A stretch of 6,432 nt of DNA from a virus (Duplodnaviria > Heunggongvirae > Uroviricota > Caudoviricetes). Every line of letters starts with the position of its first letter. The stretch's first letter is position 1. The translations under genes and the position numbers were made by a program. The stretch lies in IMG/VR virus record IMGVR_UViG_2526164634_000019, one strand, 5' to 3'. Below the pieces are notes generated by a model, which saw only the letters and a program-made list of their open reading frames with translations, did no database searches and was not told the origin of the DNA. Shown here piece after piece: positions 1,788 to 6,432 of this stretch.

Positions 1788-2747
1788 ATGAAAATTTGTA
1801 TCGACGACGGCTCCACCAACATCAAGCTGGCATGGACTGAGAACGGCGAACGCCGCAACGCCATCAGCCCGAACAGCTTCAAGTCGGAATGGTCTGCGCC
1901 GTTCGGTGGCACGCAGCCCGCGAACTACATGCTTGATGGCGTGCGCTATGGTTTTGATCCGGTCAGCGATCGCTTTGTCCAGACGACCGACACGCAATAC
2001 CAGTACAGCGATGTGAATGTCATTGCCATTCATCACGCGCTGGTCAAATCAGGCATCACACCACAGGAGGTGGATGTGGTTGTCACCCTGCCACTGAGCG
2101 AGTATTTCGACACAAACGCACAGCCGGACATGGCCAACATCAACCGCAAAAAAGCGAACGTTATGCGCCCGGTGGAATACCAGAACGGCGAAGCATTCAC
2201 TATCCGTAATGTACGGGTTATGCCTGAATCCATTCCGGCTGGCTTTAAAGCACTGGCTGACATGAGTCCGTTTGAATCCCTGCTGATTGTGGATTTAGGT
2301 GGAACCACGCTGGATGTGGCAAAGGTTCAGGGACAACTGGCAGGTATCAGCCAGGTGTTTTGCGATCCACACGTAGGCGTTTCCCTGATGGCCGATGCAG
2401 TACTGTCGGTGATGGCCACTAACGGTATGCGTACCAGTCACCACATCGCCAATACCATTATCGAACATCGCCATGATGAAGCCTGGCTGCGCCAGCACAT
2501 CCACAATGACGCGCATTACGCCAGCCTGATGGCGGTTATTCGTGAAAAGGAAGAAACACTGAAACAACGCGTGATCCGCGCGCTGGCGGGTTTTTCGGGT
2601 TACGGGCGGGTGATGCTTGTCGGTGGAGGGGCGGAGATTGTGGCACCCGCTATCCGCGAAGTCTGCGGAGTTAATGCGACTTTCATCGCGGACGGGGTGC
2701 CACAGTTTGCTCTGGTTAATGGGCTGTACGCAATGGACAAGGAGTAA
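1788..2747 (+). CDS. stbA: actin-like ATPase of type II plasmid partition systems (StbA/ParM family)
   Basis: 319-aa ORF with SD AAGGA 8 nt upstream of the ATG. N-terminus MKICIDDGSTNIKLAW and motifs VMPESIPAG, LIVDLGGTTLD, VMLVGGGAE, LVNG match the actin-fold phosphate/adenosine motifs and my recollection of R100 StbA (MLVFIDDGSTNIKLQW...). Not verified by database search. Confidence 0.85.
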   Translation: MKICIDDGSTNIKLAWTENGERRNAISPNSFKSEWSAPFGGTQPANYMLDGVRYGFDPVSDRFVQTTDTQYQYSDVNVIAIHHALVKSGITPQEVDVVVTLPLSEYFDTNAQPDMANINRKKANVMRPVEYQNGEAFTIRNVRVMPESIPAGFKALADMSPFESLLIVDLGGTTLDVAKVQGQLAGISQVFCDPHVGVSLMADAVLSVMATNGMRTSHHIANTIIEHRHDEAWLRQHIHNDAHYASLMAVIREKEETLKQRVIRALAGFSGYGRVMLVGGGAEIVAPAIREVCGVNATFIADGVPQFALVNGLYAMDKE

Positions 2748-2751
2748 ACCA

Positions 2752-3066
2752 ATGACGACACCAACCAGACGGATAAGTTTCTATCTGAAGCCCGCCGCCG
2801 TCAAGAGTGAACAGGAGGCGTGCAATTACCTCGATAGCCTGCCAGCCTCCGAACGCAGCCGCGCGCAACGCGCGGCCTTTCTGGCTGGGCTAGCGCTCAT
2901 AAAGCGCAACCCAGCATTTACCTACTGGATGGCCGAATGGCCAGAGGACAACCTCCCCTTCAATACCGTTAGCATCAAGGAAACATACCAGGATAATCAG
3001 CCTAGCGGAGTTGAATGCAATTTTTATAAAATAAAAAAGAATATTCAGACCTTATTCCCAGAATAA
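2752..3066 (+). CDS. stbB: StbB/ParR-like partition adaptor (likely ribbon-helix-helix DNA-binding protein), 104 aa
   Basis: ATG at 2752 preceded by SD AAGGAG (2739-2744), 4 bp after the stbA stop, so translationally coupled. The track ORF 2617..3066 uses an unlikely TTG start inside stbA. Sequence MTTPTRRISFYLKPAAV...SLPASERSRAQRAAFLAGLALIK resembles StbB/ParR N-terminal regions as I recall them. The last 25 or so codons lie in AT-rich DNA. Confidence 0.75.
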   Translation: MTTPTRRISFYLKPAAVKSEQEACNYLDSLPASERSRAQRAAFLAGLALIKRNPAFTYWMAEWPEDNLPFNTVSIKETYQDNQPSGVECNFYKIKKNIQTLFPE

Positions 3067-3149: not shown

Positions 3150-3992
3150 TCATGATGAAATTGCCGAAGTTTTTTTATCGTGCTGAAGTACCGCAAATGC
3201 CATTAAAACCTCAAGAGAATAGCGGCGATAATACTTAACAAAACCATAATAAAATACTCGGGATGCAGCAATACAAAACAAGAGAAGAAAACAAAAAGGT
3301 AACAGTCTGATATTTATATCTATTAAAAAGGATAGAAGGAGCAGGAACATAAGCAACCAGACTGAAGCGAGAAAAACAAATGTAATGTTTCTACAAAAAC
3401 CATACAAAGCAACATAGTTTTGCATTTTCACCTGATGATTTTTAGAATGTTCATACACATAATGATAAGCAAGGCGAAAAAGATCGCCCCTCAAGCCCTT
3501 ACGTCGATATAGCGTAGATACAGAAAAAACATTTATATAACCATCTCGTATTTGCGGCCAAAAGACTTTAATAAGTATAGAATGCAGTGTGGTTTTATGA
3601 TGTTCTGCTTTATCAAAAGCTGATACAGGAAATAAAAAAACTCCACGAATAAAATTAACTATACTGAACTTAGTATTATGTCGTTTTATTTTCAGGGAGC
3701 TTCTTTTAGAAAACAGATAAATTGAAGGATACCCAAGTTTACTGTTCATGTATTTTTCAATTAAACAGGATGATAGAATAGATATGAAGTGACCTGAAAT
3801 ATATGATAGAACGATTAATACCACATATATAAATACACTTATTATTTCTTTATATTTCAGGATATGGTTAAGAATACCTTCTATATAAACAGGGTTAATT
3901 TCAATAGAAAACAAAAAAAGGATAAACAGGAATAACCCACCTGGAATTAGATAGCCCAAAAAGTCATAAAATGAAAACGGATTCTGTGTCAC
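3150..3992 (-). CDS. hypothetical polytopic membrane protein (280 aa; about 4 predicted TM helices flanking a roughly 125-aa basic central domain)
   Basis: Long minus-strand ORF in AT-rich DNA with a GTG start at 3992 preceded by SD-like AGGGGGAA. Strongly hydrophobic segments at roughly aa 9-29, 49-73, 205-227 and 233-255. Starts 39 bp downstream of the preceding gene stop, so it looks operonic. No recognisable catalytic motif by eye. Confidence 0.7.
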   Translation of the reverse strand: MTQNPFSFYDFLGYLIPGGLFLFILFLFSIEINPVYIEGILNHILKYKEIISVFIYVVLIVLSYISGHFISILSSCLIEKYMNSKLGYPSIYLFSKRSSLKIKRHNTKFSIVNFIRGVFLFPVSAFDKAEHHKTTLHSILIKVFWPQIRDGYINVFSVSTLYRRKGLRGDLFRLAYHYVYEHSKNHQVKMQNYVALYGFCRNITFVFLASVWLLMFLLLLSFLIDINIRLLPFCFLLLFCIAASRVFYYGFVKYYRRYSLEVLMAFAVLQHDKKTSAISS

Positions 3993-4031: not shown

Positions 4032-4529
4032 TTATTTGTTTTTCCGTAAAGGATTAGCTTTCCATCTTCTTACTAACCATTCGAATTCTTGATATGTAGT
4101 ATCCGAATTAATGCTTTCTCTGATTGCTTTAATTAATGGCTCGGCAATATCATATGTCTCTACAACTGTTGTGTAAGATGTTCTTTTTATCATTTTTTCA
4201 TCATAAATACCTTCACGAATACTTACAGCAACTCGCTCGTAAAAATTTAAAATATATTGAAATTTTCGACGCTCGGCCATTTCTTCATCTGTTATTATGC
4301 AACCATCACAAGGAAAAACATAAGAACGAAATGATTTGCCTGAACGATGCACTTGTTTCAGGGTATGCAATGACTCTATATATTGCATATCTTGCCGACT
4401 CTCAAAAAGAAAGTTGGCCGTTTGAGTTTTTTTTGCGGTACGCACATTGTAGATAATGGTTCCAATGGCAACCAAAACGCCAAGCAGAACAATAGCATTG
4501 CTGATGATTTGTAGTGTTATTGGGTTCAT
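4032..4529 (-). CDS. hypothetical single-pass membrane protein (165 aa; N-terminal TM helix plus about 135-aa soluble domain)
   Basis: ATG at 4529. N-terminal ITLQIISNAIVLLGVLVAIGTIIY is a clear TM/signal-anchor segment, followed by a charged soluble domain. AT-rich and co-oriented with the downstream polytopic membrane protein gene. Confidence 0.7.
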   Translation of the reverse strand: MNPITLQIISNAIVLLGVLVAIGTIIYNVRTAKKTQTANFLFESRQDMQYIESLHTLKQVHRSGKSFRSYVFPCDGCIITDEEMAERRKFQYILNFYERVAVSIREGIYDEKMIKRTSYTTVVETYDIAEPLIKAIRESINSDTTYQEFEWLVRRWKANPLRKNK

Positions 4530-4549
4530 CCTATTTCATCCATAAAAAA

Positions 4550-4570
4550 GGCGGGGAGCAAATCCCCGCC
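4550..4570 (-). terminator. intrinsic-terminator-like hairpin (8-bp GC-rich stem GGCGGGGA/TCCCCGCC, 5-nt loop) followed on the minus strand by T6
   Basis: Read directly. On the minus strand the hairpin is followed by TTTTTT (plus 4544-4549) and lies only about 14 nt upstream of the ATG at 4529, which leaves no room for a promoter between terminator and gene. Confidence 0.55.
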
Positions 4571-4590
4571 TCATTAGAGGTCAACGTAGC

Positions 4591-4626
4591 TTAGAAACCA
4601 TCAAATTCATCATACATTTTTTTCAT
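4591..4626 (-). other. candidate 11-codon leader ORF (MKKMYDEFDGF) with strong SD, upstream of the terminator hairpin
   Basis: Minus-strand ATG at 4626-4624 preceded by GAGGGGG with a 5-nt spacer; stop TAA at 4593-4591, 20 nt before the hairpin. The arrangement promoter, leader ORF, terminator, structural genes resembles an attenuator. Could be coincidental. Confidence 0.25.
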
Positions 4627-4678
4627 ATCAACCCCCTCATAGAAATCATAACCACGTTTTGTGGTTTTTGTGACGTAT

Positions 4679-4707
4679 AAACTACATCAAAGGCAAGCCA
4701 CGGTCAA
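4679..4707 (-). promoter_or_regulatory. candidate sigma70 promoter for the leader and membrane-protein operon (-35 TTGACC, 17-bp spacer, -10 TAGTTT)
   Basis: Minus-strand TTGACC (plus 4707-4702) and TAGTTT (plus 4684-4679) with a 17-bp spacer; the -10 keeps the conserved T1, A2, T6. Predicted from sequence only. Confidence 0.35.
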
Positions 4708-4726: not shown

Positions 4727-4756
4727 TGCACAAAAGTGCACAAATTTGCACAATTT
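4727..4756. repeat. three tandem 10-bp direct repeats TGCACAA(A)nn at the right edge of the AT-rich island
   Basis: TGCACAAAAG / TGCACAAATT / TGCACAATTT in helical phase, read directly. The middle copy contains the palindrome GTGCAC. Confidence 0.5.
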
Positions 4757-5127
4757 TTTTGAACGACTTTTTACCCTTCCGGCCCGCATGGCGGCTGGAT
4801 CCGTCAAGGATCCGTGCGTGCACAAAAAAACGCGCTTTTTCTGCGCGCAGGTGACGGGGGAACAGCCCGCGTTTCAGGGGGTAAATAGCATTCCCTGAAC
4901 GATGTCGCAGAGATAGAACAGAATGGCTGTATTTCTCACGCTGAGCGTGAAAAAGACGTGAGGGCTTTTGATTTGATGGGGTGAAAGGTAAGGCCGTCAA
5001 AATCGCACTGAGACGGCGAGAACATGCAGTCAACGCGGTGGGATTGCGTAAGAGTCTGACTGTCGATGATGGCAATCAGCAGGAAAGCGTCGTGAAATTA
5101 TCTGACTGATACAGGAGCTGGAGAGTC

Positions 5128-5747: not shown

Positions 5748-5770
5748 CTGATGAATCCCCTAATGATTTT
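5748..5770. repeat. IS10 outside-end terminal inverted repeat
   Basis: Exact match to the 23-bp IS10 outside end as remembered. Confidence 0.85.
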
Positions 5771-5793
5771 TATCAAAATCATTAAGTTAAGGT

Positions 5794-5862
5794 AGATACA
5801 CATCTTGTCATATGATCAAATGGTTTCGCCAAAAATCAATAATCAGACAACAAAATGTGCGA
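5794..5862 (-). ncRNA. IS10 RNA-OUT antisense RNA (predicted position)
   Basis: Placed from established IS10 biology: pOUT starts near element position 115 and RNA-OUT runs about 69 nt outward, overlapping the transposase start (RNA-IN). The Dam site GATC at 5814-5817 lies in the pIN region. Not verified independently. Confidence 0.4.
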
Positions 5863-6432
5863 ACTCGATATTTTACACGACTCTCTTTACCAATTCTGCC
5901 CCGAATTACACTTAAAACGACTCAACAGCTTAACGTTGGCTTGCCACGCCTTACTTGACTGTAAAACTCTCACTCTTACCGAACTTGGCCGTAACCTGCC
6001 AACCAAAGCGAGAACAAAACATAACATCAAACGAATCGACCGATTGTTAGGTAATCGTCACCTCCACAAAGAGCGACTCGCTGTATACCGTTGGCATGCT
6101 AGCTTTATCTGTTCGGGCAATACGATGCCCATTGTACTTGTTGACTGGTCTGATATCCGTGAGCAAAAACGGCTTATGGTATTGCGAGCTTCAGTCGCAC
6201 TACACGGTCGTTCTGTTACTCTTTATGAGAAAGCGTTCCCGCTTTCAGAGCAATGTTCAAAGAAAGCTCATGACCAATTTCTAGCCGACCTTGCGAGCAT
6301 TCTACCGAGTAACACCACACCGCTCATTGTCAGTGATGCTGGCTTTAAAGTGCCATGGTATAAATCCGTTGAGAAGCTGGGTTGGTACTGGTTAAGTCGA
6401 GTAAGAGGAAAAGTACAATATGCAGACCTAGG
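5855..6432 (+). CDS. IS10 transposase, N-terminal 192 codons; 3' end beyond window
   Basis: ATG at 5855; frame open to the window end. Translation MCELDILHDSLYQFCPELHLKRLNSLTLACHALLDCKTLTLTELGRNLPTKARTKHNIKRIDRLLGNRHLHKERLAVYRWHASF... matches IS10 transposase. Absent from the ORF track because no stop falls in the window. Confidence 0.9.
   Translation, partial: MCELDILHDSLYQFCPELHLKRLNSLTLACHALLDCKTLTLTELGRNLPTKARTKHNIKRIDRLLGNRHLHKERLAVYRWHASFICSGNTMPIVLVDWSDIREQKRLMVLRASVALHGRSVTLYEKAFPLSEQCSKKAHDQFLADLASILPSNTTPLIVSDAGFKVPWYKSVEKLGWYWLSRVRGKVQYADL

Follow-up and report, generated by a model that had tools for sequence, protein, structure and literature searches.

A conserved micro-ORF and intrinsic terminator upstream of DUF4760 in a P2-like prophage: a candidate peptide-plus-effector module

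The DNA analysed here is a stretch of 6,432 nucleotides (the window) from the virus record IMGVR_UViG_2526164634_000019, assigned to the Caudoviricetes. On its minus strand, between positions 4707 and 4544, lies a compact element comprising a candidate promoter, an open reading frame (ORF) of 11 codons and an intrinsic terminator, directly followed by a gene for a membrane protein of the DUF4760 family. A preliminary description, made from this one sequence, had interpreted the element as an attenuation-like control region for a membrane operon. Comparison with homologous loci leads us to a different view. The element looks like an undescribed peptide-plus-effector module and not like a mere regulatory leader, because a conserved peptide gene and a strong terminator sit before DUF4760 in a defence hotspot.

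Promoter, micro-ORF and terminator upstream of DUF4760

The features of the element and of the gene that follows it are given below in the direction of transcription.

4707-4702, minus strand: −35 hexamer TTGACC, read in the sequence
4684-4679, minus strand: −10 hexamer TAGTTT, separated from the −35 hexamer by a 17-nt spacer, read in the sequence
4666-4650, minus strand: 5′-proximal hairpin AACCAC-AAAAC-GTGGTT, found by scan and retained in the centroid structure
4638-4632, minus strand: Shine-Dalgarno (SD) sequence GAGGGGG, 5 nt before the micro-ORF ATG, read in the sequence
4591..4626, minus strand: micro-ORF MKKMYDEFDGF, 11 codons, from ATG at 4626 to TAA at 4591
4587-4600, minus strand: 5-bp hairpin UGGUU-UCUA-AGCUA with the last codon and the stop in its loop, predicted by RNAalifold
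4576-4581, minus strand: ACCUCU spacer element, anti-SD-like, conserved in the main clade
4544..4572, minus strand: intrinsic terminator GAGGCGGGGA-TTTGC-TCCCCGCCTT at 4572-4548, with T6 at 4549-4544
4536-4542, minus strand: UGGAUGA, SD-like element of the DUF4760 gene, directly after the U tract
4032..4529, minus strand: DUF4760 gene (PF15956), encoding 165 aa with a transmembrane (TM) helix at the N-terminus and then a helical bundle

The candidate sigma70 promoter TTGACC-17-TAGTTT that had been proposed is indeed present, and its position is conserved in most homologues. Its −10 hexamer matches the consensus at 3/6 positions (A2 and T6 are kept), and the promoter was consequently not listed by a promoter scan with a threshold of 4/6. 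TTGACY-17-TA(A/G)TTT is the best sigma70-like combination upstream of the micro-ORF and occurs in most homologous loci, 50-75 nt before the ATG. The strong SD was likewise borne out, with GGAGG or GGGGG found at the same spacing in essentially all homologues. The 5′-proximal hairpin, which had not been described before, has a counterpart at the equivalent 5′ position in homologues with different stems (TTCAC/GTGAA, GACTAC/GTAGTC and CACC/GGTG).

A palindrome, ATTACC-N5-GGTAAT, overlaps the spacer and the −10 hexamer in most homologues (e.g. L091, L129 and L131), even at 40-50% protein identity. It has decayed in the window, where a degenerate counterpart lies at 4685-4701. From its sequence the palindrome looks like an operator; the cassette contains no obvious DNA-binding protein.

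The leader ORF MKKMYDEFDGF is present as described, is widely conserved and displays selection of the translation type. Conservation of peptide and of RNA was compared in an alignment (A3) of 28 distinct leaders, all from loci with a DUF4760 protein sharing 61% identity or more with that of the window. Across these leaders, the first and second positions of the seven core codons are 97% conserved and the third position is 65% conserved. Pairwise codon differences within DEFDGF number 1018 synonymous vs 104 non-synonymous, with two to four synonymous codons in use at each of the residues D, E, F, D, G and F. Start codon, SD and stop are kept throughout while the N-terminal residues vary (MKK, MRK, MTK etc.), such that conservation is concentrated in the C-terminal 6-7 residues of the peptide, beside the stop codon. 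This pattern is the signature of a micro-ORF that is translated and under purifying selection on its peptide. The identity of the stop codon varies (TAA, TAG or TGA), as does the register of the motif relative to it (EGWDG followed by stop against EGWDGF followed by stop), and some peptides possess a duplicated motif, for example MKNLNEGWNGFVAMEGWDGF and MLDEFEGFDEFDGF.

Two further features of the leader RNA accompany the ORF. In the hairpin at the stop codon, 85% of cells are paired, and 3/5 pairs have changes on both sides, including changes at synonymous third positions. For the ACCUCU element there are two possible partners, each with weak evidence: the SD region of the micro-ORF, where 69% of cells are paired and covariation is slight, and the GAGG at the base of the terminator. 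A long-range SD:ACCUCU helix is not claimed, given this level of pairing and covariation.

The GC-rich hairpin plus T6 was confirmed as an intrinsic terminator whose shape is conserved in homologues while its stem sequence changes. With a 10-bp stem (7 G-C pairs), a 5-nt loop and U6, it is the top terminator-like site of the window, in which a scan found 17 such sites vs 8.3 +/- 2.7 in shuffled sequences. Its predicted folding energy is -19 kcal/mol, and with a mean pair probability of 0.97 it dominates the predicted ensemble of the leader; in the 28 homologues its stem is 97.6% paired. Stems from across the family are unrelated in sequence, each with a T run after it (GGCGGGG/CCCCGCC, ACGGGGCC/GGCCCCGU, UCGGAGG/CCUCCGA, GCGGAG/CUCCGC and UACCCGCC/GGCGGGUA), and the terminator is retained down to ~37% protein identity with at least five unrelated stem sequences. 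The distance from stop codon to hairpin, previously given as 20 nt, measures 18 nt in the window; the former figure holds if the stem is counted from GGCGGGG. Across the family this distance ranges from 15 to 60 nt.

The ATG of DUF4760 lies at 4529, 14 nt after the T run, exactly as first noted, and the promoter scan likewise agrees that there is no promoter-like site between the two. Throughout the terminator-bearing family the distance from the U tract to the start of DUF4760 is 14-33 nt; the gene therefore never has room for a promoter of its own. In nearly every terminator-bearing homologue the ribosome-binding site (RBS) of DUF4760 abuts the U tract directly, and so expression would have to come from read-through. 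The proposal that expression of the cargo depends on terminator read-through is thus supported. At the nucleotide level TTTTTT-ATGGAT(G)AAA is nearly invariant at this junction, and the reading frame is not kept; a mini-ORF just after the U tract (MDEIG followed by stop) was accordingly rejected.

In some E. coli (e.g. MDR_56 and a strain of sequence type 131 (ST131); L088, L115, H17, H18 and H24), the IS4-like insertion sequence (IS) IS421 is inserted within the terminator hairpin, in the loop at 4558-4562. Lying between the micro-ORF and DUF4760, it uncouples the two in those strains.

Recurrence of the unit with and without DUF4760

In an unbiased search, 120 loci were located through the DUF4760 protein alone (alignment A1) and 69-82 distinct upstream regions were examined. 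A micro-ORF preceded by a good SD is present in nearly all of them; one copy is IS-disrupted, and a few others were missed by the regular expression and are visible by eye. Promoter, SD, micro-ORF, terminator and the adjacent DUF4760 start recur in ~80 distinct loci. Leader ORF and hairpin are hence both conserved in homologous loci, and it is for this reason, and not on account of the single sequence, that the element is more than a chance arrangement.

Searching with the degenerate pattern [FY]DEFDGF followed by a stop yielded 29 genome loci and 73 viral loci; from the information content of the pattern, chance alone would be expected to give ~1 family in the viral and ~4 in the genome collection. 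Matches in Enterobacterales and Yersinia consist of an SD-preceded ORF of 9-11 codons, then a GC hairpin with a T run, then a DUF4760 homologue. Many further matches, in archaeal and soil metagenome-assembled genomes, Staphylococcus and other unrelated taxa, fall within long ORFs and were put down to chance. Searching with the element itself showed that in a Citrobacter P2-like phage ORF and terminator precede a DUF4760 gene, and that one prophage of a Shiga toxin-producing E. coli (STEC) contains a decayed remnant lacking the ATG, with a broken stem and a mutated gene start.

The C-terminal motif of the peptide drifts as the DUF4760 protein diverges. The forms found at each level of identity to the DUF4760 protein of the window are as follows.

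at least 61%, and again in a Yersinia clade at ~40%: ..[FY]DEFDGF
~65%: ..DEYDWF
~52%: MRKFDEYEGV
42-57%: ..DEFEGF and ..DEFEWV
35-40%: MWDENDGF, MRDVVDGF and MKDVIGGF
25-30%: MKIKFNEGWDG, MKPMHQEGWDGY, MTKLYMEGWDG and MKNLNEGWNGFVAMEGWDGF

In the clade of 25-30% identity, the peptide is encoded 19-35 nt from the DUF4760 gene and there is no hairpin. A reciprocal search with EENWDV followed by a stop recovered micro-ORFs, MTVRRTYSEENWDV and MLKRHIFNEENWDV among them, that immediately precede the genes of distant DUF4760-like proteins; these proteins match a hidden Markov model (HMM) built from the DUF4760 set at E = 1e-9 to 1e-13 and belong to phrog_2284. Since this search recovers DUF4760 downstream of the peptide, the pairing of peptide and DUF4760 is ancient and holds in both search directions. 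Along with this co-occurrence the gene order is conserved, as are the strong SD and a terminator that precedes the effector.

The most conserved motif of DUF4760 itself, YQEFEWL (residues 146-152, window 4070-4090), bears, in the main clades, a striking resemblance to the peptide's YDEFDGF (4594-4614) or DEFEWV. The idea that the peptide is a mimic of this motif was rejected: there is no consistent covariation, and the resemblance fails in the EENWDV clade, which has LKCLALRW instead.

DUF4760 is usually the only gene of the cassette. An element search revealed copies of 80% identity on 46-49-kb non-mobilizable plasmids, taken to be phage-plasmids, of E. coli, E. fergusonii and Klebsiella aerogenes. 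On these, promoter, ORF and terminator form an intact orphan unit, with no DUF4760-like ORF detected by HMM search in the fetched flanks; the unit sits in a long intergenic region with convergent genes after it (L003 3501-3667; L006 3501-3621). Compared with the window, the ORF core and stop differ at 1/24 positions (a synonymous change), the promoter at 10/29 and the 5′ untranslated region at 13/52. Further orphans occur in P2-like prophages of Xenorhabdus, in four genome records covering three named species (L020, L025, L028 and L034), two of the four records being contigs of one X. bovienii strain. Among these the variation is confined to position 4 and to synonymous or stop sites.

The peptide is also encoded in virulent phages. 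In phiEco32-like podoviruses and many T4-like phages of Klebsiella and Enterobacter we found an unannotated ATG-TAT-GAC-GAA-TTT-GAT-GGN-TTY-stop, encoding MYDEFDGF.

phage Paul (L229), 814-840: MYDEFDGF followed by stop
phiEco32 (L096): the same
Klebsiella phage JIPh_Kp122 (L230), 715-741: the same
other virulent phages (L248, L250, L235 and L079): MYDEFDGF followed by stop, or clusters of overlapping mini-ORFs with related motifs

The MYDEFDGF micro-ORF shares nucleotides with the stop of a tiny ORF whose last residues are EENWDV; in the Klebsiella phages that tiny ORF reads MVNEENWGFIDLDEHPDFITSEENWDV. Of the 412 phage records returned by the phiEco32 query, many match over a segment of ~40 nt that covers this region. 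Jumbo and T4-like contigs harbour clustered, overlapping mini-ORFs with the motifs EE[DN]WG[VFL], EENWDV, FDEFDGF and DEHPDF, which match phrog_6828 (function unknown), and stand-alone MNEENWDV or MFNEENWDV micro-ORFs are found in other phages, some with a terminator after them. Because repeats of the motif accompany them, the phiEco32 and T4-like cases are unlikely to be due to chance. In a lambdoid group (L038 and relatives), the micro-ORF perhaps lies in an alternative frame within a genuine gene of 52 aa.

The prophage and its defence hotspot

The window is the right end of a defective P2-like prophage of the P88/Xuanwuvirus type. The features on either side of DUF4760 and its leader are as follows.

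plus strand: C-terminal part of replication gene A, then parM and parR (Pfam matches)
1788-3066, plus strand: ParM (StbA) and ParR (Plasmid_stab_B) partition genes (Pfam)
3150..3992, minus strand: 280-aa multi-TM protein, a downstream lineage-specific passenger; phrog_12528, with a weak Csx27 match at E = 1e-5 (PADLOC)
minus-strand side, upstream of the cassette: conserved cos/portal backbone, then the portal gene, cut at ~5747 by IS10

Pfam matches to gpA (GPA) and to portal flank the cassette, which places it in the variable region between replication gene A and portal gene Q. Homology to P2-like phages with other cargo begins at window position 4727; the element at 4544-4707 is therefore variable cargo and not part of the cos/portal backbone. 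The gpA-portal region has been described as an anti-phage defence hotspot of P2-like phages (PMC9122126, PMC13586616), and the same proteins as those of this cargo are listed in Table S5 of PMC9122126. These hotspot papers, PMC9122126 included, list the cargo without studying the DUF4760 module. We found the cassette in 289-301 of 5426 complete E. coli genomes.

The preliminary description had placed the element before a membrane operon. While the membrane DUF4760 gene is conserved, the operon is not: homologues of the 280-aa protein are confined to a lineage of E. coli at least 96% identical, and most DUF4760 loci have no co-directional downstream gene. On these grounds the 280-aa protein was rejected as a core operon partner.

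IS10 occupies 5748-6432, with RNA-OUT at 5793-5862 on the minus strand (97 bits), and homology to an intact portal gene stops at ~5747. This interruption of the portal gene marks the prophage as defective. Gene A is frameshifted by a 1-nt deletion near 379 relative to an intact relative, giving two overlapping frames (ORFs 74-613 and 400-1461), which on the sequence is a second mark of prophage decay. Intact relatives possess an additional gene for a 175-aa hypothetical protein between the cos region and portal (locus L001 6154-6678) that is missing from the window. The parM and parR genes, here in a P2-like prophage and adjoining the defence hotspot, are present in many relatives. In the conserved backbone upstream of the cassette (4731-4760, minus strand) lie three TTGTGCA direct repeats, including the palindrome GTGCAAATTTGCAC. 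A second terminator-like hairpin, GCGCGC..GCGCGT with T7 at 4848-4830 on the minus strand, follows the portal gene within the conserved backbone and probably ends the portal operon.

Possible roles of the peptide and relation to known systems

The preliminary description had further suggested that read-through might be conditional and coupled to translation of the leader, and this part was not supported. When alternative terminator and antiterminator folds were looked for in the leaders, no antiterminator was predicted, and the terminator formed with a probability of at least 0.95 in 24/28 full leaders; in truncated leaders its 5′ arm finds only a 4-bp competitor, CCUC:GAGG. Spacing between ORF and terminator is variable, and the micro-ORF contains no runs of regulatory amino-acid codons. 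Moreover, the sequence of the peptide is conserved even in the terminator-less clade of 25-30% identity, which counts against mere attenuation.

The peptide is more than a by-product of a leader: its acidic-aromatic C-terminal motif is under selection at the amino-acid level and is inherited together with DUF4760 throughout the family. In the model that we favour, the region forms the leading part of a self-contained cassette, and the conserved sigma70 promoter would drive a short mRNA made up of a 5′ stabilising hairpin, a strong SD, the 11-codon peptide gene and an efficient terminator, and DUF4760 would be made solely from the minority of transcripts that read through. As DUF4760 has no promoter of its own and its RBS abuts the U tract, read-through would be its only source; much peptide and little membrane effector should result, with the terminator acting mainly as a fixed, leaky attenuator. 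Most plausibly the peptide would behave like an antitoxin towards a toxic membrane effector, as its short-lived inhibitor or ligand, and orphan peptide genes in other phages and phage-plasmids could serve as decoys. Taken as a whole, the proposal of a functional DUF4760 partner, a ratio-setting terminator and decoys borne by competing elements is one that we hold to be evenly poised between right and wrong. The ratio-setting role, the action of the peptide in trans and the defence function are each inferred. We favour the proposal because it accounts for terminator-less peptide genes, orphan units, duplicated motifs and arrays, none of which a pure leader explains.

Several points weigh against a partner role. 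We know of little precedent for a functional free cytoplasmic peptide of 8-13 residues, and the literature yielded no report of anti-phage protection by DUF4760. Termination efficiency and the dependence of DUF4760 on read-through are both deductions from sequence. The stop-codon hairpin and ACCUCU suggest control at the level of RNA or translation and not a passive terminator. In the EENWDV clade, a terminator-like hairpin seems, by eye, to take the last codons of the ORF as its 5′ arm; a translating ribosome would therefore melt it, which would allow translation-coupled read-through in that clade. Several virulent phages have unrelated genes downstream whose start overlaps the micro-ORF, as fits a portable, cis-acting upstream ORF (uORF), and some of the orphan matches may be chance or alternative-frame. 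The mini-ORFs of virulent phages, then, may be peptide decoys or a shared regulatory uORF.

Many of these observations would be accommodated if the micro-ORF were a cis-acting regulatory leader or arrest peptide, at whose stop the ribosome pauses or stalls, possibly in response to a signal, remodelling the leader RNA at the stop-codon hairpin, the ACCUCU element and the terminator foot, and rendering read-through or translation of DUF4760 conditional. This would be the strongest version of the idea in the preliminary description. We regard this as a serious though rather doubtful alternative. Like known arrest peptides, the product is very short and is conserved in the last 6-7 residues beside the stop; the hairpin at the stop codon is conserved with compensatory changes at synonymous sites, ACCUCU may pair with the SD or, alternatively, with the GAGG at the base of the terminator, and the hairpin of the EENWDV clade appears to be built from the last ORF codons. 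The overlapping gene starts are seen in phiEco32-like, T4-like and lambdoid phages alike, and a micro-ORF encoding EENWDV with a terminator precedes other genes in other phages, all of which has the look of a portable uORF. On the other side, the predicted folds offer no antiterminator and leave the terminator paired in most leaders, and at 15-60 nt from the stop it lies mostly outside the ribosome footprint. The varying identity of the stop and the shifting register of the motif relative to it also speak against stalling there. Tandem motifs, and T4-like arrays of motif variants, would be unexpected, and the intact orphan units of phage-plasmids and Xenorhabdus prophages precede convergent genes.

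It is very improbable that the unit is instead a gene for a small non-coding RNA, with a promoter, a transcript of ~125 nt and a terminator, in which the ORF is incidental and DUF4760 merely lies downstream. The compact promoter-to-terminator layout with 5′ and 3′ hairpins, standing alone on phage-plasmids, would suit such a gene, as would the conservation of the spacer and stop-codon hairpin at the nucleotide level. Yet variation sits at third codon positions, start, SD and stop are invariant, and the peptide motif is kept while nucleotides and the rest of the leader diverge completely. A search of Rfam 15 returned no family match for the region, SorX scoring 19.3 bits vs a gathering threshold of 46.6 on what is essentially the terminator alone.

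To the idea that the hairpin chiefly insulates the cargo from late-operon transcription crossing cos from the portal/terminase operon, ORF and promoter being fortuitous, we give next to no weight: the terminator does face transcription from the portal operon upstream on the same strand, but the T7 hairpin at 4848-4830 is already there after the portal gene, both the promoter and the translated ORF between that hairpin and the cargo terminator are conserved, and the unit is also found with DUF4760 outside P2 contexts and on plasmids.

The reading of the peptide as a partner of DUF4760 can be carried further. In a two-part defence module, an excess of the rapidly turned-over, acidic-aromatic peptide of 8-13 residues might restrain a membrane-anchored, EP-domain-like DUF4760; shut-off during infection would remove the peptide and let the effector fire, and phages and phage-plasmids might counter by encoding the same peptide. 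This fuller scheme is speculative, and we think it less probable than the partnership as such. Were it true, MYDEFDGF of the phiEco32-like and T4-like phages, the EENWG/EENWDV/FDEFDGF arrays and the orphan units of phage-plasmids would be decoys, and no shorter genetically encoded antitoxin or anti-defence decoy would be known. None of the PADLOC models matches DUF4760, and nothing relevant was found in the literature on DUF4760 function or on the DEFDGF motif. The fold comparison on which the term EP-domain-like rests, with the EP domain of EDS1/PAD4/SAG101, is a lead only: identity is 7-12% and Foldseek E-values are at least 0.24 (not significant). DUF4760 further differs from those proteins in having a TM helix and no lipase-like domain. 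If confirmed, the link to the plant EDS1-family EP domain would be another bridge between bacterial and plant immunity.

Whichever reading holds, a peptide gene and terminator before DUF4760, a motif that drifts with the protein and the same peptides in virulent phages turn an anonymous hypothetical protein into a cheaply testable system. The cassette is carried by ~5% of complete E. coli genomes, the ST131 lineage among them, in a known anti-phage hotspot. More generally, a mobile-element module can have among its core parts a gene of 8-13 codons that annotation pipelines do not see.

Of the systems to which the element may be compared, the trp, his, pheA and pyrBI attenuators share its arrangement of promoter, short translated ORF and intrinsic terminator before a promoterless structural gene. 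Here, however, there are no codon runs, no exclusive antiterminator and no fixed spacing between ORF and terminator, and the peptide itself is conserved and persists without terminator or downstream gene. The arrest-peptide leaders of tnaC-tnaA, secM-secA and ermCL are short ORFs with conserved C-terminal residues at the stop that control a downstream gene. The micro-ORF resembles them in being short, conserved beside its stop and upstream of a gene, stalling being hypothetical in its case. It differs in that what follows is an intrinsic hairpin, mostly outside the ribosome footprint, and not a Rho site or masked RBS, and in that the motif occurs in tandem and in arrays.

In toxin-antitoxin and abortive-infection modules, a labile antitoxin is encoded upstream and over-expressed, and phages carry antitoxin mimics such as T4 Dmd and pseudo-ToxI. 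The order of putative inhibitor then effector, the predicted differential expression, the location in a defence hotspot and the orphan small partner in competing phages are all matched here. Unlike in those modules, the putative antitoxin has only 8-13 residues and no DNA-binding or folded domain, and the effector is neither a nuclease nor a kinase but a TM protein that has an EP-like bundle. Finally, prgQ-IRS1 of plasmid pCF10 encodes a secreted, hydrophobic pheromone inhibitor peptide, and termination there is controlled by an antisense RNA. The present element has the same succession of a small peptide ORF and a terminator, with read-through into downstream genes, whereas its peptide is acidic and has no signal sequence, and no antisense unit was seen.

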